Shown in pieces: positions 10,501-58,421 of a DNA stretch of 64,000 nucleotides; the first letter of the stretch is position 1; every line of letters begins with the position of its first letter. The DNA comes from Nanobdellota archaeon. GTDB taxonomy: Archaea; Nanobdellota; Nanobdellia; Woesearchaeales; DATDXC01. The notes beneath the pieces were generated by a model that was not told where the DNA came from, made no database searches, and saw nothing but the letters and a program-made list of their open reading frames with translations. Position numbers and translations under genes: made by a program. The stretch is taken from positions 14,877 to 78,876 of the forward strand of contig JBDRFR010000069.1 in the NCBI GenBank assembly GCA_043818675.1, in the 5' to 3' direction.

Positions 10501-13500
10501 GACATTGTGGTCGGAGACCAAGCTGCTGTTAAAGGATATGATAACGATTCAACCAATCTATGGAATTTTAATTTACCCTCGGATGATATATCCTCAATCT
10601 CCGTAGGAGACATCGATAGCGATGGTGATAAGGAGATTATTGCAGGGGGCCTTACAGACGGTACAGTATGGGTACTTAATAGAACTGGCAGCTTAGAATT
10701 TAGCTATAAAATTGGAACCGGCCATATTGGAAATACCTTCTATGCAAGCTCTCCATCAACTGATATTTCTGATGTTAATAATGATGGAATAAATGATATA
10801 GGTGTTGGTATCTATCTAACTAGTGATGATAGTTATGGATATATCTTCCAGGACGTCTCCTGCACAATAAAATTCAACGATTCTGCAACTATTTATAACA
10901 TGACATGGGATTACGTTACTGACAAATGGAATTACTCAAGAACGTTTTCGAATAATGTTGTCTATGCATATAATGTAACCTGCAGTAAAGGTGGCTATGT
11001 AACTCAAATCCAGGAATCAACAGTTGATTTAACACAGACCTTAATAATATGGGACGACTCTAACTCAAAAGTAACATATGCAAATTACACCAAATTTTAT
11101 GCAAATTACACCAAATCAAACGGAACCCCATTGACAGGCAGCGGTGAATGGTGCGAGTTTGCATTCAATAAAACAGGCCTTAACTGGAGCTTTTATACCG
11201 CCTATAACATGAGCTATAATCCAACTACAAAATTATACGAGATAATTGCTGATGGCGGCTATATTAAAAATAACACAGAATCGCATATTGGCGGGATGCC
11301 TGTTGGCAATTATAGCTTTAATATTTCCTGCTATGGCGGCAAAAACTTAACAGCAACAGACACAGTAAATGTTGCTAAGTATGATACAGGTTTATCTTTA
11401 ACACAGTCAAATGTTCATGCTGATATTAACACAGATGTTGAGTTCTTTGCTAATTACACAAGAGATACTGTATGGAATGTGGACAACTGGTTCAGAGATT
11501 CAGGAGAAATTGGCAGAGTTATATGGAATAGCAGTGATGTTGGAAACAGTCTTGTTGCACTAAGACCAGCTGACTTATCTAATGACGGATATCTGTCTGA
11601 TATAGTTACAGTAAATGACTACAAGATTATTGCACACTATCAAAACGGATCAGTAAGGTGGACTTTTTCAACTGGAGTTATCCAACAGGCAGGATCCTTA
11701 AACATTGTCAATCTGGATAACGACGGATTTAAAGATGATATAATTACAAAATTCTCTTATAACATATTTGTCCTTAATAAGACTGGTGATCAACTAAACA
11801 AAACAACTGTTGCAGACGGCGGTTGGGGAATTGGAGTTGCTGGTGATGCAAATAATGACGGAATAGAAGATGAGTTAGTAGTATCAGGCGTAAATTCTAA
11901 TCCGGCAATATTATACAATATATCTAACAGCGGACTTTCTGTTGTTAAACAATGGAATTTTTCAGTACCAGATGATATGAGGGAAGTAATATTCGGAGAT
12001 TTTGACTCAGACGGTTTGGATGATGATTTTGCAATTAGTGGAGTTGATTCAGGAAAAGGAACTTATGTTTATAAATGGAACGGGACAAATTTATTTAATG
12101 TAACTTATGGTGGACTTGCTATTGCCAAAGCTGATATTGACCATGATGGTTTTGAAGATGATATAGTGATTGCAGAAAACGGCAATTATCTTGTTTATTC
12201 TTTTAATGGAAGCTATAATACAAAATACACAAGCACAGATGAAGCAATGGTATACAATACAGATCCAATATCAGTATCCGCAGAGATGATTGTACTGGAT
12301 TTGGATTCAGACGGATTTAATGATGACATCATACTGGGAGATAGAGGCGGAGCAGCTGGACCTGGAATTGTCTGGGCATTTGACAACAATAGTATTGGAT
12401 TGTGGAATATCACATTACCTGCAAACGGAGATGATGATTACATCTATTCCATGGTCGTTGATGATTTTAATAACGATGGTAAACAAGAATTGATCTTTTC
12501 CAGTGAAGAGTTTGATAAAGTTTATGTTGCCAATCTGTCAGGATATGTACTTTGGGACCAGATCATTGGACAAGGAGATATCTCAGTGATTAAAGGAAAA
12601 TCTCCTGGCATCATAAGTATTGACATAAATAAAGATGGAATTTCTGATTTTGCGACCGCTTCCGCAAATGGTTTTGTCCATGTTCTGCAGGACGTATCCT
12701 GCACAATCCAATATGAATCAGAAGGTGGAGAGATTAACAGGACTGGTCAGAATTGGGAAAATGGTTTAGTTGCTCTATATCATTTTAATAATGAGTCTGC
12801 ATATGGCGAAACAACTGTTGGAGTTAATAATGTAACGTATGACTTTGCACCAGGTCACTGTTATGATAACGAAACAGAAATACTAACTAATGAAGGCTGG
12901 AAATTATTTTCAAAATTAAATAAAACTGAGCAAGTAGCAACATTAAATCAGGAAACAAAAGAATTGGAATGGCAGCATCCAATGGAATATCAAGAGTTTG
13001 ATTATGACAATGATATGTATAAGATTATATTGGAGGATGGATCAGATTTACTTGTTTCAGAAAAACATAGGGTTTATGGAAAATCAGTAAGCATCATCGT
13101 GATGAGTGAAATCTTCAAAGATGATCTTATTTTCTCTGACCTGGAAAGTCAGGACAAAATGCCCCACATGAACTCTTTTGAGATGGCTCAAATCCCCTTT
13201 GAGGTTCTTAAGGTGATTGATGGTGACAATATCCATTTCAGAAATTTGGATAATTTTTCTACTCAAAGCTTTGAAGAGAACAGGGTCTTTTCTCTTAATC
13301 TTGATCAGAGCCTTATCAATCTTGGAAATGTCAATATTCATAATTCATCCAGCCACTTTTTTAGTTCTTCGGGAGTCATTGCCTTGCCTTTAGCTGGGTC
13401 TTTAGATATTTTCTTTAACTTTTCTATGAACTCAGGCTTCATAGGAAATTCATCTAATGGATGCCAGTCAATAGATTCACAAAACTGCTCATCTTCCCTA

Positions 13501-16500
13501 GTTAGTTTCCTTGATACACGAAATTCTTCAAATATTCTTCGCTTGTTCAATTCCTCTCTAGCTGCTTCAGACCAGTTTATCCATGGAAATGCTTCAATTC
13601 TTGCCTTAAAGGATTTGTCTACAGGATATATTATACTAGCCATTTATAATTCACCCCTTGCCCTTAATTTTTCTAATGCTTCTAATTTCTTAAGCACACC
13701 CTGTTTTGCAACTTCAGACCAATTAATGTCAGGATGCTTGTCTAACTTTGCCTTAAAATCATCAGGTACTGATATAGTAAACCTTTCCATTTTTGATGCC
13801 TCCTGGATGATACAAGATAATAAAATTTTGGGTTCATCCAACAATTGTATTACTAAACACAATTGTGTTTATAAATCTTTTGATAATTTCAAGTTGATGC
13901 CTATAACTGATGCGTATGGGCTAATCAATTCAGGAAAACAGGTTTATTTCCTGGATGGTTTTAATAATGAGGTTAAAGTTAAGTCGATTGTTAAAGAAAA
14001 GTACAATGGCAGAATATATGATGTCGATGTAAAAAATGATGTTGTTTTGGTAAGAAGGATTGATAGGAATAATCGCACAAATAATTATGATAAAAAAGCC
14101 ACGCAAGCAGGAAAAAATTCATGCCACAATTCTGGGAAATATTGTTATGATAAAAGGACTAAGGAAAACTTCTTTTCTGAAAATGAGGATGGTTTGGGTA
14201 TATTGAGTGAGAGGGGTTATGAAACTAATTATTATGGTATATGGTCTGGGAATAGCAATAACGGAACTATTTATGGTGCTACAGTTGATATGACTGGTGG
14301 GAAGTGGAATGGGAGTTTGGAGTTTGATGGGGCGGGGGATTATGTTGATGCTGGAGATACATTTGATATGGGAACAAATGATCTGTCATTATCTGTATGG
14401 TTTAAAACATCTGATAGTGGTTCAAAAATTAAAACAATTATTTCAAAATCTTATGCATGGGATACAGGTGCATATAATTTGATTATTACTGCTGGTAATA
14501 ATCTAAGACTTCATGCTGAGAATAATACTGGTCAGGGTGAAGTAGATATAATAAGTCCTCTAACTTATACTGATGGACAATGGCATCATGCAGTAGGTAT
14601 TTTTGATAGAGATAAAAATGCAATATTATATGTTGATGGATCTGAAGTTGGTTCAACAACAATGGCAAATATTCTTAATCAGGATCTGGATACTACCTAT
14701 TCATTTAGAATTGGAATGTCACATTGGAATAGTTGGCCCAGACCTTTCAACGGCTCAATAGACGAAGTTGCAATTTGGAACAGAAGTCTTTCTGAATCTG
14801 AAGTCTGGGACTTGTACATGTCGTCAGCACCAAAATATAACATGACATGGGACTATACAAGAAAGAAATGGAACCATACAAAACAGTTCACTTCATACGG
14901 TAATTATACTTACGGAATAACATGCGAAAAAGGCGGCTACACAACCCAAAGAAGCTCAAGTTATGTTGATCTAACCCAATCATTAACAATATGGGATGAT
15001 TCTGATTCAAAAACAGCCTATGCAAATTACACCAAATTTTATGCAAATTACATAAGATCAAACGGAACAGCAATGAACGGAAACTATTGGTGCGAGTTTA
15101 AGTTCAATAAGACAGGCAGATGGACAAAACCAGTCAATATGAGCTTTAATCCAGTAAGCTTACAATATGAAATAATTGCTGATGGCGGATATATTCAGAA
15201 TTCAACTGAAACGCATATTGACGGGATGCCTACTGGAAATTACAGTTACAATATCTCCTGTTATGGTGGTGAATATAAATCACTAACAGATACTGTAAAT
15301 ATAGCAAAATATGATACTGCACTTGCTTTAACCCAAACAAACATCCATCCAAATACCTATTCAGATGTTGAGTTCTTTGCTAATTACACAAGGGCTACTG
15401 TATGGGATGTAGACAACTGGTGGTGGGATACAACTGAGATTGGGAGGGTGGTTTGGAATACAAGTGCTCTTGGAGGGAGTTCACATACTGTTGATTTCTT
15501 TGATTGTTTGAATAGTGGAAAGAAAAATTGCCTTGCGACCACAGAATATTCTGATATCTGGATGTTTTATCCAAATGGAACACAGATTACAGCATCTGGA
15601 ACTGCCTCAAATCCAGGAGGAGATTTATTAGATGCTAATGTTTTTGACGGAGATGGAGATGGTTATGAAAATGAGGTTCTTATTGTTGGAGATAATAATC
15701 AGGTTTTAGTTGTTAACGAGACAAGAAATACTGTGTATACCTATACTGCTGGAGGAGATATTTTTTCTGTTGTTGGAGCTGATTTAGATAACGATGGAGT
15801 CAAAGATGATTTTGTTATTGGTGCTTATACTGGGTCTGTTTATCAGGTCATGGCATTTAATACTTCTGATGGAGTTAATTGGGTGAATTTTTGGAACGGA
15901 ACTGTTGGAGGAGTTATTCAGGAAATGGTTATTGGTGACTTTGATAGAGATGGAAGGGAGATTGATGTTGCTGCTACAGGGACTTCGAATGGAAATGTTA
16001 CTGTTTTTGTTGGGGATAATGGAACATTGATATTTAGTACTGTTGACCTTGGGGCATTATCTTCACTTACAGTGTCTGATTTGAATCATGATAATTACAA
16101 TGATGAGATAATCGTGGGGGAGACGGGTGCCACTAGGGTTCTTGCGTTTAGGTGGAATGGGACATGGGGAGCAGAAATGCAAGATACAGACAATGATACT
16201 AATGGTTGGCTTTGGTCAAACACTCTTCCAACATACAGTATTACTGAAATTGATACTTTTGATGCAGATTTAGATGGTTACAAAGATGAGATTATTTTTG
16301 AAGATGGAGGCAGTTCATCAAACTCAAAAATTTGGGCAGTGGATGAAGAGGGCAACTACTTGTGGAATTTTACATGGGGGAACACAATTGATGTTTCATA
16401 TAGTCTTAATGTTGCTGATGTGAATAACGATGGAAAGGATGAGATAATTTTTGGACCTAGGAATGCTGCTACATTGTATGTTTTGAATATCTCTGGAGAT

Positions 16501-37500: not shown

Positions 37501-40500
37501 AATTATAATACAACTTTTTCAGTGCCTACGACAAACCTGGGTGCTGTAATTATAAAAGTTAACATCACTTCAGCTGACAACCTCTATGCATCAAACCAGT
37601 CCGCAGTCACTTTATGGGCTGAAACCATTTTAAATTACACAGCGTCTGCTGATTATTCTGGCACTGTAACAAACTTCACTGTTACAGCCAATTTTGTGCG
37701 TACAGATACAAACACATCTGTCCCCGGAACCTTCAATATTACTATACACAATAACAGCCTAAGATATTACAGGGACTGTAACGGAACTTTATGTATTAAT
37801 TCATTCCTTGTGCCTGGCAGCGTTATCTGGGGTAATTACAGCTTTAATATAACAGCGACTAACATATCTGGTTATTATCATAATGCTTCTGTAAATTTTA
37901 CAGCAATGTTAGAATATAAGAGCACCACTGCTTCGGTCCTTAACTCTAAAAACAAGACTATCATTGATTTTGCAACAGGTTCAACTTATGTATACTATCA
38001 TAACATTACAATTGTCAATTTAGGCAATGCAACAATGAACAATGCTTACGCTCTTGCTGACTTATCCGATCTGGATTTTGATTCTATTGTTAACACCTCA
38101 AGCTGCGGCAATATTCCCCCTAAAAGCAGCTGCAACCAGTCGTTTGCCTTAACTCTTAATTCAAACTCCGAACCTGACGTAAAACTTATCATTTGGAGGG
38201 TAAACCACACCAATAACGACGGCTCGTACTCAAAATCTTCAAATTCTGTCAGGATGACCACCACAATTGTTGGCGCAGTCATAATGGACACATCCACTGG
38301 TTTGATTGACCAGGACATAGAACATGGCCAGTCAGTTAGTTCAGGTTTTGCAATTCAAAGTAATGGTAATCTGGTCCTAAGCAGTGTTGCTGTAGAGCTT
38401 ATAAACGACACTATGCCAAGCTCTTGGTTTAGCTTCACCGGTTCTACGAGTTTTGGCACGATCCCGGCAGGCCAGACAGGCACGGTTACATACTCAATTA
38501 CTATCCCAGAACATTACGCTCCTGGCACATATAATGCAACCATAAACGTAACTGCATCAAACCATAATGAAACATACATTAAGGTCAACATTACCGTTCC
38601 TCTAAATGGCACATGGATTATCAGCGGGGATATCGGTAAGACCACAAATTTCACCCAGAATCTTAATGGCACTGTTGGCAATCTTACGCTCAGCAATCTG
38701 GGCAATATTGAGATGAATTTCAGCATATCCTACTTGCCTGGCGGAAGCAGGCTATACACTGATTTTGGCAGTGATTTATTCCAGGAAAACCAAGCTGGGT
38801 ACAATCCCACCTGGCTGAATATACCAAAAAATACAAGCAGGAATCTCAGCATTTTCCAGAAAAGCTGGTCAAGCAGCTTATCAGATGTTGGCATTAACAT
38901 TTCCATCATTAATTTAAGCGGCACCCCTACAAACAGGAGCATCTATATGGTGTTTAATATTAAAGATGATCCACCTGTTGTTGAAGCCATGTTTTACCTT
39001 GTAAACAATTCCGTCCAGAATTACACTGAATTTAACAAGTCTATTACCATAAAAGCAACTGTAACTGACGACATTGATATTGAACATACCACAAGCAACT
39101 CATATTTCAATGTTAGCTACTATGGAGATTATACAGTTATCAACGCTTCATTTACCGAGTACAGGTACGATAGCGGTTATAAGGAGATAAATTTCACAGC
39201 TAACTTCACACCCACAACGATAGGAGCCCACAATGTCACATTAACTGTCAAAGACAGCGCTTCCCAGATTACAAGATATTCAGGCTACAATTTCACCTCA
39301 ATCGGCAACACTTCCGTCAATATTACATTTAATCTATCAGTCGCCCAAATAACCCAAATAACCCAAAGATTAAGCAAGAATATTACAGTTAATATCACAA
39401 TCAAAAATACTGGATTTGTAAAAGCATATTATAACAATTTAACATGGATTTTACCTTCGGGGTGGTCGATTTATCCAACATTTGACTATTTATCAAGCAT
39501 ATCTTCCGGTGCATCAAAATCAAAGCTTTTCAACTTATCAATCCCTATAGCTACCAGTCCAGGATTATATACAATAACGGCAATCACTAACTGGACAAAT
39601 CCGATAAAAACAAGAAATAGCACTACTGAAACCTTCAGGATAAATGTAACATCCAATAAAATCCTGAATTTAACCATTAACAATAAGACAATAACAATAA
39701 ATCATAGCTCTCAGCGGTCGTATGTGTTTGGTGTGAATGCTACAGGAAATGATAATTTGACCAATGTAAATATAAGTTGTATATCCGGTGAGGTATGCAA
39801 TTTCACAATATCCTATAATAATTCCTTATTTAACGTTAGTGCTGGTTCAGTTATTTATGTAAACACTACAATTACTGTCCCGGAATATCAGGCTCCGGCC
39901 AACTACACCGGAATCTTCAATGTTTCCACAAACAGCTCAAACTCAAAGACTATAAATTTAACAGTGGAAGTGCCTGCTGACGAAACATGGAATATTAGCA
40001 TAGCCACTATTTCAAAAAGTGTCGGCGCTTTAAACTCAGGTATTGTCAGCAAATTCAACATAACAAACAATGGCAACATTATGATAGGTTTCAAGCTTAA
40101 CACCACGAACAACACTATTATTAGTCTTAACGCAACCAGTATAACCGTCCAAAAAAACAGTACAAGTGAAGTATTGATAAGTTACAGCTCACCACAACAG
40201 GCAGCTGATTATATAATCGTTATTATGATCACTAATAATTCTCTGTCGCAAAGGCAGCGCAATTTAACAATTAATCTAACTGTACTTCAGTTCCAGGTAA
40301 ACATAACTTATCCATTAAATATATCTCCGTTAACTAACATTACAGCAAACCAAAACATAACAATAAACGCCACAGCCTATTATATCAATGAAAGCTTGTC
40401 TGAAAATGTGACATGGGCTGTTAAATTTAATGATAGTGTATGCAATGTTTACAATTATACGTACATTAACAGCGTATGGCAGGTCAGGTGCACAACCCCT

Positions 40501-43500
40501 GACATAGACGACGGCAAATACTATTATCTTAAGCTCACTGCTAATTATACAACCTTAAACAATGCATTGACTGACACTGAACCCAACGCTATTTTATACC
40601 GTGACGTCACCGCTCCAACCATCATTTCAAAGAATAAGAAGAACATTGCGCCAGGTAGTGACGTGAACCTAACATTAAACATTACTGACAATGTTAATGT
40701 TTCAACTGTCATTGCTCAGCTGACCTATCCAAATATCACAGGCAATATATCCACCATAATTAATTATACAGCCTCCTATACAAACGGATTATATATTATC
40801 AGCTTATATGATTTGGTCCATATAGGCGATTATGATATTACATACTATATTAATGATACAACAGGCAATTCCCTAACCGACACAGACAATTTCGAGGTTT
40901 ATTTGATAAAACCCAGATTTTCCGGAACCATATCTGACTATCAGGGTAATGGTGTGCCATCTTTTTGGGAATTTTATAGGTCAAACACCTCTACCCTTCT
41001 CACGAATATAACGACTAACTCAACAGGAAGATACAATAGCGGAGATATTCATAACCGGACTTATGACCTTAGAATTAGCGCTCTTGGCCATAAAATAATC
41101 ATTAAAAATCTGAACTTCACAACAATTAAAAATGACGCAATAGACCTTGATTTGATTATTGGCACTGACATTGACACAATTATTACTAACTACAGGCCGT
41201 TAAAAGGTATCGGTGTTAATACAACCTTTAATGTAAGCTATGTCAACTTCACGATTAATTATAGCGGCACAAGTCCTGTATCAGAAACAGGCATAAAGAT
41301 TTTTAGATGTTCAAACTGGTCTTATAAGGTCAGAATTTGCGATAACACCTGGACAGAATTAAACAGCACTGTTTATGTTAGCAGGGATATAGTAATCGCT
41401 TCTTCTTCAGGATTTTCTGCATATATAGCTGCCGAGCTAAAATGCGGCAACGGCATATGCGAAGAGATATACGGTGAAACTTCAGCAAACTGCGCAGCTG
41501 ACTGCATAACAGCCCAGGGTCCAGCTTCAATTTCTGTTAGCAGCGGTGGTGGCGGTGGTGGCGGTGGCGGAGGCAGCGGACTGTCAAAAGAAGACTTAAG
41601 AGCTGAATTAGAAGCATTAAACTTGCTAAACATTACTGATAAGATTGAAGATATTGTCAAAGCCACAAAAAAACTGGCAGGTGTAGAAATGGCGACCACC
41701 TCGATATATAAGGAGCTTTTCCCAAAAGAAGACGCCTCAGCAAGGATTAGGATGCGAAACACTCTCGATACCAACATCAGATTAAACACCAAAGTTGAAG
41801 GCGCTGTAAAAGATTTTGTATTCTTTGAAAATTATGCAGTAACTCTTTCAGGCGGTGAAGAAAAAGACATTATAGTAAGAATAACCATCCCGCAGTTTAC
41901 AAAACCTGGATCATACGATGGTGACATTATTTTAATGCGTGACAATGAAGAGGTCAGGATCCCGACGACCATTAGAGTTTTACAGGAAGAAGGAAAACTT
42001 TTAGACGTCAAAATCCAGCCGTTAGTAGACTCAATCTCGCCTGGCGAAACTCTGCTTCTTCGAACAGACTTGATAAACCTTGGTAAGACTAAACGTGTGG
42101 ATGTCCAGTTTAAGCTGCAATTAACCGACCCCAGGACAGGTGAAATACTAAAAGAAACAGAAGAGGCATTTGCAATCGAGACATCACTAACAACAACAAA
42201 AGAACTTGAGATTCCAAAAGAGATCAAATTAGGCAAATATTTAGTTCAGGGCACTGCATATTATAGCAGTCTTGAAGACCGTAATCAGGAAGCAGTATCT
42301 ATTGCAACCATAAACATCCAGCAGCCATTTTTAGAAAGGGAATTTTTAGGCATTAAGAATGAAAGTTATATGTTCGGATTTATTATAGCTTTAGCATTGA
42401 TTGCACTGTTTATTTTCTACACATATAAGCAGAAAAAGAAGAAACGGTACATTAAGGTAATAGATCTTAAAACTTTGCCAAAACCCGGAAAGAATTCTGG
42501 ATTTATCGGTAAGATAGCAGAAACAGGCATTAGGACTTTCATTGACATTAACAAGCTTCAGACACATACACTTATAGCTGGCGCAACAGGCAGCGGTAAA
42601 ACAATAGCTATCCAGGACATTATCGAAGAGTCTCTTTTAAAAGGCATCAGTGTGATAGTCTTTGATCCTACTGCTCAATGGACCGGCTTTTTAAGAAAGT
42701 GTAAACAGCCGTCTATGTTAAAACGCTACAGTTATTTTGACATGAAGCCAAAAGACGCAAAAGCTTTCAAAGGCAACATCAGGACCATTACAAATCCGCG
42801 TGAGATTATTGAAATTAAGCAATTCATGGCTTCAGGTGAGATCACAATCTTTAACACAAGCAATCTCGAGCCAAAAGAGATGGACATTGTAGTAGCATCG
42901 ACTGTCCAGCAAATATTCAAGGCAAACCTAGAGGAAAGCCCTGACCTAAAAACTCTGATAGTCTATGACGAAGTTCACCGGCTGCTTCCAAAATTCGGCG
43001 GCAGCGGCAAAGGCTTTATACAGGTTGAAAGAGGCGTTAGAGAATTCAGGAAATGGGGTGTTGGCATTGTATTGATAAGCCAGGTGCTCAGCGACTTCAT
43101 CGGTGAGATCAAAGCTAATATAGGCACAGAGATCCAGTTAAGGACCCGTTACGAAAACGATCTCGAAAGGATCAGCATGAAATACGGTGAAGATATTCAA
43201 AAATCTATTGTAAAGGCCGCTGTAGGAACAGGTATGATCGTCAATGCTGAATATAACCATGGCCGCCCATATTTCGTCAGTTTCCGGCCAATACTTCATT
43301 CAATAACAAAAATAAATGACAAAGACCTTGCTAGTTATACACAATACGCAAAACGCACAGAGGATATTACTTACCAGCTTGAACAATTAAAACTTTTAAA
43401 TGTTGACATATTTGATTTAGAATTAGAGCTGAAGTTGTCCGATAGTAAAATTCGTTCCGGCCAGTTTGAAATGGTCGAGATTTACCTAAAATCTCTTGAG

Positions 43501-56096: not shown

Positions 56097-58421
56097 TTAT
56101 TTATACAGGCTATCTTCAATAACTGCGATTGTATCTTCTTTTGTTTTTGCTGCTCGGAGTTTTTCTGCTGTCTCTTTATCTGACCCCATGATCCAGTCTG
56201 CAAAAATATTTTCAGATTCAGATGCATGCGCTGCATACGTTCCTTCATCCATAGTATTGATTTCATCAATCAATTCCTGCGGCGATGATACGGTAACTCC
56301 GTTCTTAAGCTTCAATGGTGGCAGCTTTTTTTGTTCTTTTTTCTTTTCTTGTTTTGCAGCTGCTTTTTTTGCCTCTTCTGGATGTTCTTTTTCGAATTTT
56401 TCCCTTTCTTTTTTAGCCTTTTCAAATTCTTCCTGCAATTCTTTTTCAGAAACAAGCTTCAGTTTTCTCTTCTTAGCTTGTTTGCCAATTTTATCCCATG
56501 CAGTGTCAAGCCTAGGTTTTAAGCCTTCCAGATAAATATCAACCATGTTAAAACTGCCAGACTTAACTTTATCAAGCGCCATCTTAAGTTCCAGTTTTAG
56601 ATCAAAAATATCAACCTCTTCCTCTCTAAGCTGTTCAATCTGATCATCCAGATCGTCTATTATATCATTATACTTATTGTAATTATCAAGTTCTTCGTCT
56701 GTTAATCTTGCATGTTCATGTAAAAGAGGCCTAAAACTTACAAAATAAGGATTGCCTCTGTTATATGCAGAATTTGAAATCATCCCTGTGCCTGTTGCAG
56801 ACTTCAGTAGAGATTGCAGCATGTAAGACCCATATTTATCTTTTATCCTGTTCAAATCGCCTTCATCACGTGTACGCATTTGAATTTCTGTATTAATATT
56901 TGCTTTTGTTTCACCTATAAAATCTGTCAGAACCTGGCTGATCAACACAAGGCCGACCCCCCATTTTCTAAATTCTCTTGCGCCTCTTTCAATTTGGATA
57001 AAACCCTGTCCGGTTCCGCCGAATTTTGGCAGCAGTCTGTGAACCTCGTCAAAAATTACAATAAGCCTTAATTGCGGGCTTTCTGGCAGGTCGGCGTGAA
57101 ATACTTCTCTGATTGTATTGGCTACAAGTATATCACTGTCTTTGGGATCAAGTTTATTGATAGCAAAAACGTGAATTTCACCAGGAATTAAGTATTTTTT
57201 TATATCAATGATCTGGCGAGCATCCATAATCTGGTGCACATTCCCGTTAAATGCTCTTGCATCCGTTTTCTTGAGTCCGTAACTAGGATACAAAGCTATC
57301 ATTTTTTTATTCGTGCATTTTCTAAGAAAGCCTGTCCACTGCGCTGTTGGGTCAAACACTATAATCGCAACTCCTTTTAACAGCGCTTCTTCTACAAGAA
57401 CTTCCGCAGAAACTGTCTTTCCACCGCCTGTTGAACCGGCAATTAGGCTGTGAATTGTCAGCTGATCCATATCAAAATACGCTTTAACTTTTGATTCAGC
57501 AATTTTTCCGATAAGAATCGACCGCTCGCCAGGTTTTGGCAGCAATTTAAAGTCAATTTTACCTTTATATCTTTTCTTTTTAGCAAGCCTTTTGCGTATT
57601 ATTAAAAATACTAATGCAGCTATTGCAAGAAAAGATAGTGTTAATAACAGCCATCTCACAGGCATTATCCCAAAAATCAGATAATCCCATATCGGTTCAC
57701 TTACTAAGAATCTCGCGCTTGCAGTTGATGATATCCCCAGATAATCCACGCGAGCTGTAATTACATACTCACCCGGTCTGATAAATTCAGGTACTTCAAA
57801 AAATTTTATAAGAGTTGTTGACTTATTAAGTCTTAAGTTCTCAGTTTCTTCCAGAAAAGTTTTGTTGACCAGATAAGTTTTTTTATCTGCCATGCTGTCA
57901 ATCGAATAATGCAAAGTAATATTAAATCCATCTTTCAATAAAAGATTATGAATATTAATCTTATACCTTAAAGTATCCTTAAGATATACTCTTTCTGATA
58001 ATGGCTCAACTTTGATAGAAATTGCGCTAATAGGAACTCCGCTAATATCCCCTACTGTTAGCATTGCAGGTATTCTTTCATTGACATTTCCGGATAAGAC
58101 TAATGTTCCGTTAAAAAAACCCATGTTATCAGCAAAAAATAAAATTTTGGCATCTGCACTTGATTTTGCCTCAAGATTAATAGTCGTCACATCAGGCACC
58201 ATATAACTGCTGATGTTGCCCTCTGATGAAAACATTACCGTTATTGGATTATCGCCTTTATTTTCAATGGTAAGCACATGCTCTTCGAATTTGCCTATTT
58301 TAACATTTTTAATTATTATATCATCCGATATTCGATAATTGCTATTTTCAATTTGTGCAGCAACATTTATAGACATTAATATTACTATTATTACTATCGC
58401 AAAACCTCTATTTTTTATCAT
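56097..58421 (-). CDS. ectodomain-TM-FtsK/HerA-type ATPase (774 aa), stand-alone paralogue of the giant protein C-terminus
   Basis: Signal/anchor MIKNRGFAIVIIVILMSINVAA, a ~240-aa ectodomain, and TM LLLTLSFLAIAALVFLII followed by RKRLAKKKRYK. Walker A AGSTGGGKT lies at 57414-57440. Also present: FDPTAQWTGFLRKC, Walker B IVIFDEVHRLLP, REFRKWGVGLVLISQ, and a K/E-rich coiled-coil tail. Confidence 0.85.
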   Translation of the reverse strand: MIKNRGFAIVIIVILMSINVAAQIENSNYRISDDIIIKNVKIGKFEEHVLTIENKGDNPITVMFSSEGNISSYMVPDVTTINLEAKSSADAKILFFADNMGFFNGTLVLSGNVNERIPAMLTVGDISGVPISAISIKVEPLSERVYLKDTLRYKINIHNLLLKDGFNITLHYSIDSMADKKTYLVNKTFLEETENLRLNKSTTLIKFFEVPEFIRPGEYVITARVDYLGISSTASARFLVSEPIWDYLIFGIMPVRWLLLTLSFLAIAALVFLIIRKRLAKKKRYKGKIDFKLLPKPGERSILIGKIAESKVKAYFDMDQLTIHSLIAGSTGGGKTVSAEVLVEEALLKGVAIIVFDPTAQWTGFLRKCTNKKMIALYPSYGLKKTDARAFNGNVHQIMDARQIIDIKKYLIPGEIHVFAINKLDPKDSDILVANTIREVFHADLPESPQLRLIVIFDEVHRLLPKFGGTGQGFIQIERGAREFRKWGVGLVLISQVLTDFIGETKANINTEIQMRTRDEGDLNRIKDKYGSYMLQSLLKSATGTGMISNSAYNRGNPYFVSFRPLLHEHARLTDEELDNYNKYNDIIDDLDDQIEQLREEEVDIFDLKLELKMALDKVKSGSFNMVDIYLEGLKPRLDTAWDKIGKQAKKRKLKLVSEKELQEEFEKAKKEREKFEKEHPEEAKKAAAKQEKKKEQKKLPPLKLKNGVTVSSPQELIDEINTMDEGTYAAHASESENIFADWIMGSDKETAEKLRAAKTKEDTIAVIEDSLYK

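Follow-up and report, generated by a model that had tools for sequence, protein, structure and literature searches.

Inteins are thought to persist by means of homing endonucleases or by decay into mini-inteins. Here, we describe an intein in a 64,000-nucleotide stretch of DNA from a Nanobdellota archaeon (assembly GCA_043818675.1, contig JBDRFR010000069.1, positions 14,877 to 78,876; hereafter, the window) in which the slot that corresponds to the endonuclease slot of other inteins contains, on the antisense strand, a three-gene operon of the type II toxin-antitoxin (TA) kind, while the frame of the host gene, which encodes a giant surface protein, stays open across it. We consider it likely that this locus is a composite selfish element, in which the antisense operon is constrained in its codons by the host frame and would act as the persistence device of the element, and in which the peptide that the host frame reads opposite it would be removed from the host protein together with the intein by splicing.

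Inteins with a nested LAGLIDADG endonuclease share with this locus a HINT domain with Cys1, a block B His, a terminal Asn, and a +1 nucleophile, as well as an insertion loop between blocks B and F. The homing endonuclease domains of inteins all lie at one conserved insertion site (PMC6801210). In the LAGLIDADG-nested inteins, the endonuclease is translated in the sense direction within the intein and drives homing. In contrast, the cargo in the window is an antisense operon of three genes with its own predicted promoter, the sense translation of the same DNA is filler, and the predicted effect is retention, not invasion; a Pfam search found no sense-encoded LAGLIDADG or HNH domain between blocks B and F of the window intein. 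A second comparison is with fractured genes, in which split inteins flank a free-standing endonuclease gene (Dassa et al. 2009, PMC2677866). These also place a separate gene, together with its control elements, between the two halves of an intein within a host gene, but there the host is in two open reading frames (ORFs), the halves trans-splice, and the cargo is a GIY-YIG or Vsr-like endonuclease, whereas the host ORF in the window is continuous from 7519 to 43815 (and extends to >4,372 aa in related loci) and the cargo is an antisense TA operon.

The operon itself resembles those of RelBE, DinJ-YafQ, and YefM-YoeB in having a toxin of RelE/ParE fold, an upstream antitoxin of the ribbon-helix-helix (RHH) type, a stop/start overlap, and promoter palindromes. 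It differs from them in an extra 48-aa RHH leader, which makes three genes, in scoring under the YafQ and ParE_toxin cutoffs, in being embedded antisense within an ORF, and in its strict exclusion of the codons TTA, CTA, and TCA. TA cassettes stabilize integron arrays, genomic islands, and plasmids by post-segregational killing, and the role proposed here, the guarding of dispensable or deletion-prone DNA, is similar; a tandem of about five cassettes in a related locus (L006) recalls such arrays. The TA cassettes of integrons, islands, and plasmids sit between genes, and we know of none that lies within a coding sequence and whose own sequence must leave the other strand open to translation. 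Large secreted proteins can contain Hint domains that process themselves, such as the bacterial intein-like (BIL) ones, and the window likewise has a Hint domain in a very large, variable surface protein, with weak matches to the Hint_2 and PT-HINT models. However, the window family keeps the terminal Asn and the +1 Ser, and removal of the intein restores a host motif, which points to splicing and not to cleavage only. In full-text literature searches, we found no account of an antisense TA operon borne by an intein or embedded in an ORF. The parts are known, namely, an intein with nested selfish cargo and a type II TA system, but the principle that organizes them is, as far as we can tell, unprecedented.

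The antisense operon and the open host frame

An earlier note on this DNA, made from the sequence alone, had flagged the interval from 13084 to 13880 as an endonuclease slot with an addiction module on its antisense strand. That interval stands, and we have refined the element around it to a whole intein at 12859-14253 that has a further insertion of 59 aa between blocks F and G. The features of the host gene, the intein, and the operon are as follows.

7519-43815, plus strand: host gene for the giant surface protein, an uninterrupted ORF of 12,098 codons
12859-14253, plus strand: intein of 465 aa, from Cys1 (TGT, 12859-12861) to the terminal Asn (14251-14253), with Ser+1 at 14254-14256
12859-13083, plus strand: N-terminal splicing region of the intein, 75 aa, with block A CYDNETEILT and block B LLVSEKHRVYGK
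13084-13880, plus strand: host-frame filler of 265 codons, Ser/Asn/Leu-rich and stop-free, which mirrors the operon and promoter of the minus strand
13084-13341, minus strand: toxin gene, 85 aa, RelE/ParE superfamily (YafQ/RelE-like), with codons aligned with the host codons and no TTA, CTA, or TCA
13338-13643, minus strand: antitoxin-like gene, 101 aa, with an RHH_12-like N terminus and a DUF2683-like C terminus (DUF2683 E 2.5e-4, below cutoff)
13644-13790, minus strand: leader gene, 48 aa, RHH protein of the RHH_12 type
13799-13803, minus strand: Shine-Dalgarno (SD) sequence GGAGG (CCTCC on the plus strand), 8 nt upstream of the RHH ATG, as read from the sequence
13841-13868, no strand assigned: two palindromic repeats, ACAATTGT (13841-13848) and ACACAATTGTGT (13857-13868), putative operators for the RHH repressor
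13868-13875, minus strand: archaeal TATA-box-like element TTTATAAA, with AAAAGA before it on the minus strand; the host frame reads V-Y-K
13881-14058, plus strand: C-terminal region of the intein to block F, FKLMPITDAY...GRIYDVDVKNDVVLVRR (block F ends in VRR at 14058; C1 hidden Markov model [HMM], E 9e-28)
14059-14235, plus strand: insertion of 59 aa in the F-G loop
14236-14256, plus strand: block G GIWSGN (14236-14253) plus the +1 Ser of the C-extein

The plus-strand frame is free of stops over the whole cassette, and in its translation of 265 aa, Ser accounts for 18.1%, Asn for 10.9%, and Leu for 10.6%. We found no Pfam match for this filler, whose density of N-x-S/T sequons is 4.2 per 100 aa, compared to 4.9 in the rest of the giant protein. 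The codons of the toxin gene are in exact register with those of the host, while both genes upstream of it are shifted by one base relative to the host codons. For the host frame to stay open on the antisense strand, the toxin gene must avoid TTA, CTA, and TCA, and the shifted antitoxin genes must avoid the dicodons NNY-TAN and NNT-CAN. The eight Leu codons of the toxin gene are CTT (1), CTC (3), CTG (2), and TTG (2), with no TTA or CTA, and none of its four Ser codons is TCA; in the other genes of the window, TTA and CTA together account for 38% of Leu codons and CTC for 2%. The features that the earlier note had read from the letters are thus all present at the coordinates it gave.

When the three genes were resampled synonymously under the codon usage of the window, the host frame stayed open with a probability of 0.006 over the toxin gene, 0.29 over the 101-aa gene, and 0.70 over the RHH gene, with a product of about 1.2e-3. 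In ordinary genes of the window, the number of antisense stops per 100 codons is 5.8, 4.1, or 7.4, depending on the frame; at these rates, about 11 stops are expected in the three cassette genes, and 0 were observed (P about 1e-5). The longest other open antisense run in about 19,000 codons is 178 codons. The antisense placing of the cargo can be explained by the fact that an independent gene in the sense direction would terminate the host ORF.

The proposal of three coupled genes on the minus strand, a 48-aa RHH gene, a 101-aa paralogue, and an 85-aa toxin gene, was confirmed in all its features. The 48-aa and 101-aa proteins have the motif INWSE(V/A)A in common, in a shared segment that is also a 28-nt direct repeat, and a stop/start overlap of 4 nt (ATGA, 13338-13341) couples the 101-aa ORF to the toxin gene. 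A purpose-built HMM of the RHH_12 type matches both upstream proteins (E 2e-21 for the 48-aa protein and 2e-16 for the 101-aa protein), and the 48-aa protein also matches RHH_1 (E 0.006-0.02) and VapB_Sulfo (E 4.9e-5), both under the cutoffs. Searches for the cassette elsewhere recovered an operon of identical layout (48, 101, and 85 aa) in L001, where the homologues of the 48-aa and 101-aa proteins match PF26688 RHH_12 (weakly for the 101-aa homologue), and toxin homologues as ordinary free-standing genes in many loci.

The toxin matches the NCBIfam model YafQ TIGR00053 at E 3.4e-9 (37.2 bits; cutoff, 87.25) and Pfam ParE_toxin at E 0.03 (15.3; cutoff, 23); it is a member of the RelE/ParE superfamily but not a YafQ equivalog. 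Thus, the profile searches gave the RelE and RHH family matches foreseen for the window proteins, although all of them fell under the curated cutoffs. The protein collection contains 20 toxin homologues at 50-71% identity, some of them annotated as RelE or YafQ by their source. The family profile of the toxin matches Methanocaldococcus jannaschii RelE3 (3bpq_B, E 4.4e-5), its closest solved sequence relative, and an AlphaFold2 (AF2) model built from the family alignment has a mean predicted local distance difference test (pLDDT) score of 92.4 and a predicted template modeling (pTM) score of 0.80. In a Foldseek search of the PDB with this model, the top 50 matches all belonged to the RelE/ParE superfamily (YafQ, YoeB, RelE, HigB, and ParE), with template modeling (TM) scores of 0.51-0.80. 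The PDB sequence matches for the toxin and for the intein came from family profiles and not from single sequences; a single-sequence phmmer search of PDB sequences with the toxin gave nothing meaningful. The exact toxin sequence of the window is not on record in the assembly index. No relative of the toxin family turned up in a scan of viral contigs, which thus offers nothing in favor of a viral vector.

In other loci, the order TATA, palindrome, palindrome, SD, and ATG is kept in front of the RHH_12 leader genes, and the TATA-like sequence AAAAGATTTATAWA is conserved across cassettes. We predict that the cassette has its own autoregulated archaeal promoter, in which the palindromes would serve as operators. 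The GC and AT skews flip over 13100-13850, as expected of genuine minus-strand coding. As judged from these sequence features, the minus-strand genes are a real type II TA operon, with a predicted toxin and a predicted neutralizing function upstream of it. Right after the toxin stop (13060-13083), the block B codons GAAAAACAT...GGAAAA read TTTTCC on the minus strand, where there are also TGTTTTTC runs; these may be a candidate oligo-T archaeal terminator of the cassette transcript, in which case block B would be doubly constrained.

Codon selection in related operons

We fetched 165 loci with the toxin family by means of the toxin, and these contain 152 distinct toxin genes. In the codon-aligned antisense frame, 84 of the 152 have zero stops and the other 68 have 1 to 12, a bimodal distribution, while the other two antisense frames of the toxin genes have means of 4.9 and 9.1 stops. 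The open antisense spans of the 84 stop-free toxins range from 136 to >4,372 aa, and many of them run off the contig. The use of the codons that would give a host-frame stop opposite a codon-aligned gene was as follows.

Toxins of 78 stop-free operons: TTA+CTA, 0 of 620 Leu codons; TCA, 0 of 343 Ser codons
Antitoxins of the same 78 operons (frame shifted by the ATGA overlap): TTA+CTA, 301 of 619 Leu codons (49%); TCA, 112 of 550 Ser codons (20%)
Toxins of 63 operons with antisense stops: TTA+CTA, 40% of Leu codons; TCA, 20% of Ser codons

When summed, the banned codons number 0 of 963 in the toxins and 413 of 1,169 in the adjacent antitoxins. This control within the operon rules out GC content or a general codon bias as the cause of stop avoidance. 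At every conserved Leu column of the stop-free toxins, the codons CTT, CTC, CTG, and TTG are mixed, and random pairs of these toxins have the same codon at 41% of identical positions with four- or sixfold degeneracy. Thus, synonymous sites have turned over without producing a host-frame stop, and recent common ancestry that froze the codons is also ruled out. The idea that codon selection keeps the host ORF open, which had been put forward for the window alone, is supported by this frame-specific avoidance over 78 diverged operons, with the adjacent antitoxin gene as an internal control. These codon comparisons show that purifying selection upheld stop avoidance through extensive synonymous turnover across the whole cassette clade. 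The stop-free state is a clade-wide inherited property and, as 35 of the 78 stop-free cassettes occur in short open spans with no long host ORF, not necessarily one maintained in situ in this genome.

Long or contig-truncated frames surround 43 of the 78 stop-free cassettes, and an intein signature is present in 27 of the 43. The arrangement of the window thus recurs in dozens of further giant genes of archaea. The host taxa are mostly DPANN lineages, along with metagenome-assembled genomes of ANME-1, Altiarchaeota, and Thermoplasmatota. We also observed that AGT and AGC make up 6.7% of the Ser codons in antitoxin genes of stop-free operons, compared to 23% in those of stop-containing operons, and that TCT is enriched. 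Stop avoidance does not account for this low AGT/AGC usage, which may reflect selection on the host-frame residues (TCN gives Asp/Glu, and AGY gives Leu) or shared ancestry.

The intein and the cargo of its endonuclease slot

The intein is located in the N-terminal loop of one LamG domain of the host protein. Cys1 is present in 13 of 13 distinct full-length N parts of related loci and is invariant in alignment A2, with Ser in its place in a few database relatives. Block B reads S-E-K-H in the window, where His70 is invariant and the Ser nearly invariant across the subfamily (alignment A2); the T-x-x-H motif is thus present with Ser, a conservative variant, for the canonical Thr. At the other end, W[ST]GN[STC] follows 20 of 23 distinct C parts, and the sequences beyond it differ from locus to locus. 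Block G does not have the penultimate His, as Gly precedes the terminal Asn in the window and its relatives. Some active inteins are without this His, and its absence weakens the case for an intein but is still compatible with membership.

Profile searches of the window sequence gave TIGR01445 intein_Nterm at E 2.5e-4 (22.0 bits; cutoff, 24.5) and Pfam Intein_splicing at E 0.0019, below cutoff, with the latter match extending over both halves. Intein_splicing matches 6 of 10 family members (best E 4.9e-6). When the family profile was compared to the PDB, the three best matches and most of the 12 best were inteins (best E 7.5e-4), and the Hint_2 and PT-HINT models gave weak matches. An AF2 model of a mini-intein relative (P0021, compromise alignment A7) had a mean pLDDT of 53, and its top four Foldseek matches were Npu DnaE inteins at TM scores of 0.2-0.36; a single-sequence phmmer search of PDB sequences with the concatenated mini-intein gave nothing meaningful.

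The host protein offers its own controls for the insertion site. The sequence IQYESEGGEIN opens three long paralogous repeats (at aa 1729, 3048, and 5324; nt about 12703, 16660, and 23488), and an intein is present in the first of them only, so that the other two are built-in empty sites. Removal of Cys1 through Asn in the window joins NVTYDFAPGH to SNNGTIYGAT, compared to NVTYDFS-GNGNNGTIYGAT in the two intein-less paralogues; the spliced form is one residue longer. In a related locus with two inteins (L166), the same operation brings the LamG motif back to its exact length at both junctions, and in L020 and L049 the LamG start motif is likewise restored to its exact length. By sequence criteria, the flanks of the operon are a real intein, and the profile evidence is consistent with this but modest.

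The 59-aa insertion between blocks F and G (14059-14235) contains, at 14143-14153, an exact 11-nt copy, TGTTATGATAA (C-Y-D-K), of the first 11 nt of the intein, and it has an internal duplication of 28 nt (14068-14155). The F-G loop is 5 to 11 aa long in most relatives, and a whole TA cassette is found there in L075 and L115. The insertion in the window may have been left by another copy of the intein, nested or in tandem.

During the alignment of this family, we also noted that MAFFT kept placing fragments of the C half on the N half (alignments A3-A6), matching TLNxETGExEWQ...Y.I.LEDGS.LLVS.xH with YFLDxxNxxVKV...YDVDV.ND.VLVRR, because the two HINT halves resemble each other. The pseudo-twofold symmetry of HINT is thus visible in the sequence of this intein family.

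An exhaustive search with the 75-aa N part of the intein found 3,166 proteins, of which we analyzed the best 141. In these 141, 165 intein copies in 91 proteins have a K/R/E-rich insert in the slot, mostly with a T-x-x-H block B, and LAGLIDADG_3 is present in the slot of both such distant inteins that were checked with Pfam. A Ser-rich filler is found in 35 copies in 31 proteins, all 35 with the S-x-x-H block B of the window, and 11 copies are mini-inteins. From this census, the flagged interval is a homologue of the homing-endonuclease slot. The claim of an addiction module on the antisense strand of that slot is supported by the RelE/ParE fold of the toxin, the intein flanks, the fit of the empty sites, and the K/R/E-rich inserts, LAGLIDADG in the two checked, in the slot of distant inteins.

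In the intein subfamily of the window, most of the loci fetched, which were themselves retrieved via the toxin, have RelE cassettes in the slot. The slot also holds PIN_2 toxins with small antitoxins (L049, L115, and L166) and DUF433/DUF5615 pairs (L055 and L166). These PIN_2, DUF433, and DUF5615 matches are all above the Pfam cutoffs (in L166, PIN_2 at E 2e-20 and DUF433/DUF5615 at E 4e-18 and 6e-12), and all of these cassettes are antisense, with the host frame open through them. L166, which was retrieved via the intein and not via the toxin, encodes a 3,575-aa LamG protein with two such inteins. The same RelE cassettes also occur in a second, classical intein family (CVAEDS..., NTTxxHPYL, and VYDLAIEGTHNFIANDIVAHN followed by T) in L096, L097, L118, and L137, and L009 and L111 have RelE cassettes in the N-terminal loop of an intein of this second family. 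In L006 (identical to L022; 1104-6728, minus strand), one frame of 1,875 codons passes through about five tandem antisense cassettes, in which RHH_12 leaders accompany PIN_2 and RelE genes and small genes of unknown kind. These cassettes are separated by truncated N and C fragments of inteins and are followed by a complete C part and a LamG protein, and the whole looks like an array from repeated recombination inside one intein.

A search of a collection of 5.8 billion proteins with the intein profile returned fragments of 74-250 aa only (P0021-P0063), while intact giant products are on record outside that collection. Evidently, gene calling splits the host ORF where the cassettes lie, and this fragmentation may explain why the arrangement went unnoticed.

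The giant protein of the window has repeats of the LamG and FG-GAP-like types and ends in a HerA-like ATPase domain (DUF87 E 1.4e-11 and HerA_C E 2e-9 in the part encoded by 40000-43815), and related loci carry Pfam Laminin_G_3. A LamG protein of L166 (1-1989) likewise has DUF87/HerA_C, so the fusion of a huge extracellular protein with a cytoplasmic-type ATPase is recurrent in these two loci, and a second, separate HerA-like gene lies near the giant ORF on the minus strand (56097-58421). The remaining minus-strand ORFs of at least 100 aa within the giant gene had no family match and look spurious. An alternative genetic code is unlikely, as the minus-strand genes have standard stop codons and a full-length aRF1 with three domains is encoded in the window.

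Proposed mechanism and alternative explanations

In the composite element that we favor, the ribosome would read through the 265-aa Ser/Asn/Leu-rich filler, and the intein would then splice out together with it, so that the LamG domain is restored. Removal of the filler in this way is plausible given the conservation of Cys1, the block B His, the terminal Asn, and Ser+1. The TA module would stand in for the endonuclease, and for homing, as the persistence device of the element. If the intein, or the adjoining part of this recombination-prone repeat gene, were lost, the labile antitoxin would be lost with it and the cell would be poisoned, an addiction role that we infer from TA modules in other settings. 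The cassettes would be interchangeable cargo that moves between inteins and linkers by recombination, because RelE, PIN_2, and DUF433/DUF5615 cassettes share one intein subfamily and RelE cassettes occur in two intein families as well as in linkers. That convergent transcription gates the distal 30 kb of the giant gene, as was also suggested earlier, is speculation.

Several points weigh against this proposal. Its splicing, toxicity, and transcription are predictions, its addiction role is taken from TA modules elsewhere, and the toxin, antitoxins, and intein of the window all score under the curated family HMM cutoffs. The AF2 model of the mini-intein relative is poor and its TM scores are low, and the non-canonical blocks (a Ser in place of Thr in block B, and a Gly where a His would precede the terminal Asn) are accompanied by a 59-aa F-G insertion that might impair splicing. 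In L019, L125, and L055, cassettes lie antisense in plain linkers of giant ORFs, outside inteins, where filler cannot be spliced out, so splicing is not required for its tolerance. Further, 35 of the 78 stop-free cassettes occupy short open spans that are closed on either side, mostly with no detectable intein, which means that the stop-free state can outlast, or exist without, an intact host ORF. We regard the intein as a favored harbor of the cassettes but not an obligatory one. In L055 (host aa 3300-3830), two of the non-intein cassettes are each flanked by a host repeat of ~25 aa, FLSDFIPxATSKEKEYxSFxDITNKV, which suggests insertion with duplication or unequal crossing-over.

Among the alternatives, the one that survives best is that the Hint domain cleaves, as in BIL or Hedgehog proteins, or is inactive, and that the filler is kept as a tolerated linker. 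The substitutions in blocks B and G, the long F-G insertion of the window, the cassettes tolerated in the non-intein linkers of L019, L125, and L055, and the weak Hint_2 and PT-HINT matches would all fit this explanation. However, the terminal Asn and the +1 Ser are conserved though the downstream exteins differ, excision of Cys1 through Asn restores the host motif within 0 to 1 residue at three independent sites, and splicing inteins are the best PDB and Pfam matches. We consider a non-splicing Hint domain unlikely.

Also unlikely, and next in order, is that the cassette is a neutral passenger that was pre-adapted, having inherited its stop-free frame from other ORFs, in an intein or giant gene that may be decaying. 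That the stop-free state is clade-wide and clustered in the phylogeny (82% nearest-neighbor concordance), that the host frame is broken or absent around the 35 short-span cassettes, and that the F-G insertion of the window has a remnant copy of the intein start are all in its favor. Yet the 36-kb frame is intact on both sides of the cassette, the catalytic positions of the intein are all intact, and extensive synonymous turnover without stops requires selection along most lineages. In addition, 41 of the 55 long ORFs that flank the 35 short-span cassettes run in the direction of the open frame, compared to 42 of 85 for ordinary cassettes. This suggests that the hosts were recently fragmented or the cassettes recently moved, and it favors recently fragmented hosts over a long free life of the cassette.

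We also weighed whether the antisense operon is mainly regulatory, with convergent transcription or antisense RNA throttling the giant gene and the TA proteins secondary. Head-on transcription is indeed forced through 0.8 kb of the 36-kb gene, from a conserved autonomous promoter that faces the host gene. This role is nevertheless quite improbable, as the three unrelated TA families in the slot point to selection for TA function and for no particular antisense RNA, and cassettes whose antisense frame is closed are found as free-standing TA operons of the ordinary kind.

It is very improbable that the minus-strand ORFs are spurious and that the plus-strand low-complexity sequence is a disordered linker of the giant protein, even though the TA proteins of the window score under the Pfam and NCBIfam cutoffs and sequons are about as frequent in the filler as in the remainder of the protein (4.2 versus 4.9 per 100 aa). 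The toxin homologues are called genes, many of them free-standing with stops in the antisense frame; the RelE/ParE fold is confident and the skew is inverted; the promoter, palindromes, SD, and ATGA junctions are conserved; and the PIN_2 and DUF433/DUF5615 cassettes in other slots are above the Pfam cutoffs. Finally, that the sense frame is open by chance or through composition (GC content, codon bias, or the amino-acid makeup of TA proteins) has next to no probability: the upstream genes have few potential stop sites (P of an open frame, 0.29 and 0.70) and the stop-free toxins are slightly richer in GC (0.379 versus 0.316), but this explanation is already refuted by the frame-specific avoidance within operons (0/963 in toxins versus 413/1,169 in antitoxins) and is further opposed by the P of 0.006 for the toxin alone, the approximately 11 stops expected from ordinary window genes and the limit of 178 codons on any other antisense run, the bimodal distribution among homologues (84 with zero stops and the rest with 1-12), and the mixture of the four permitted Leu codons in each column.

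Beyond the composite element in the window, we are evenly divided on a wider proposal: that there is an unrecognized class of ORF-dwelling antisense TA cassettes (RelE, PIN_2, and DUF433/DUF5615) in giant archaeal surface-protein genes, with a preference for the endonuclease loops of inteins. In such a class, codon selection would bar host-frame stops, a homing element would, in one intein subfamily, have been made addictive, the cassettes may thereby protect huge, recombination-prone genes from deletion in small genomes, and the cassettes would be exchanged in the manner of integron cassettes.

The two-strand coding constraint described here is clean and has a built-in control in the frame-shifted neighbor gene, which makes it a test case for overlapping-gene theory and for gene-finding software. 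If the inteins splice, inserts of 200-500 aa that are unstructured are tolerated within them, a natural precedent for intein engineering. If inteins do carry addiction modules, this would be a third persistence strategy for inteins and would connect two classes of selfish elements in a new way, and it would bear on the upkeep of 10- to 36-kb surface-protein genes in archaea, mostly DPANN lineages with small genomes.

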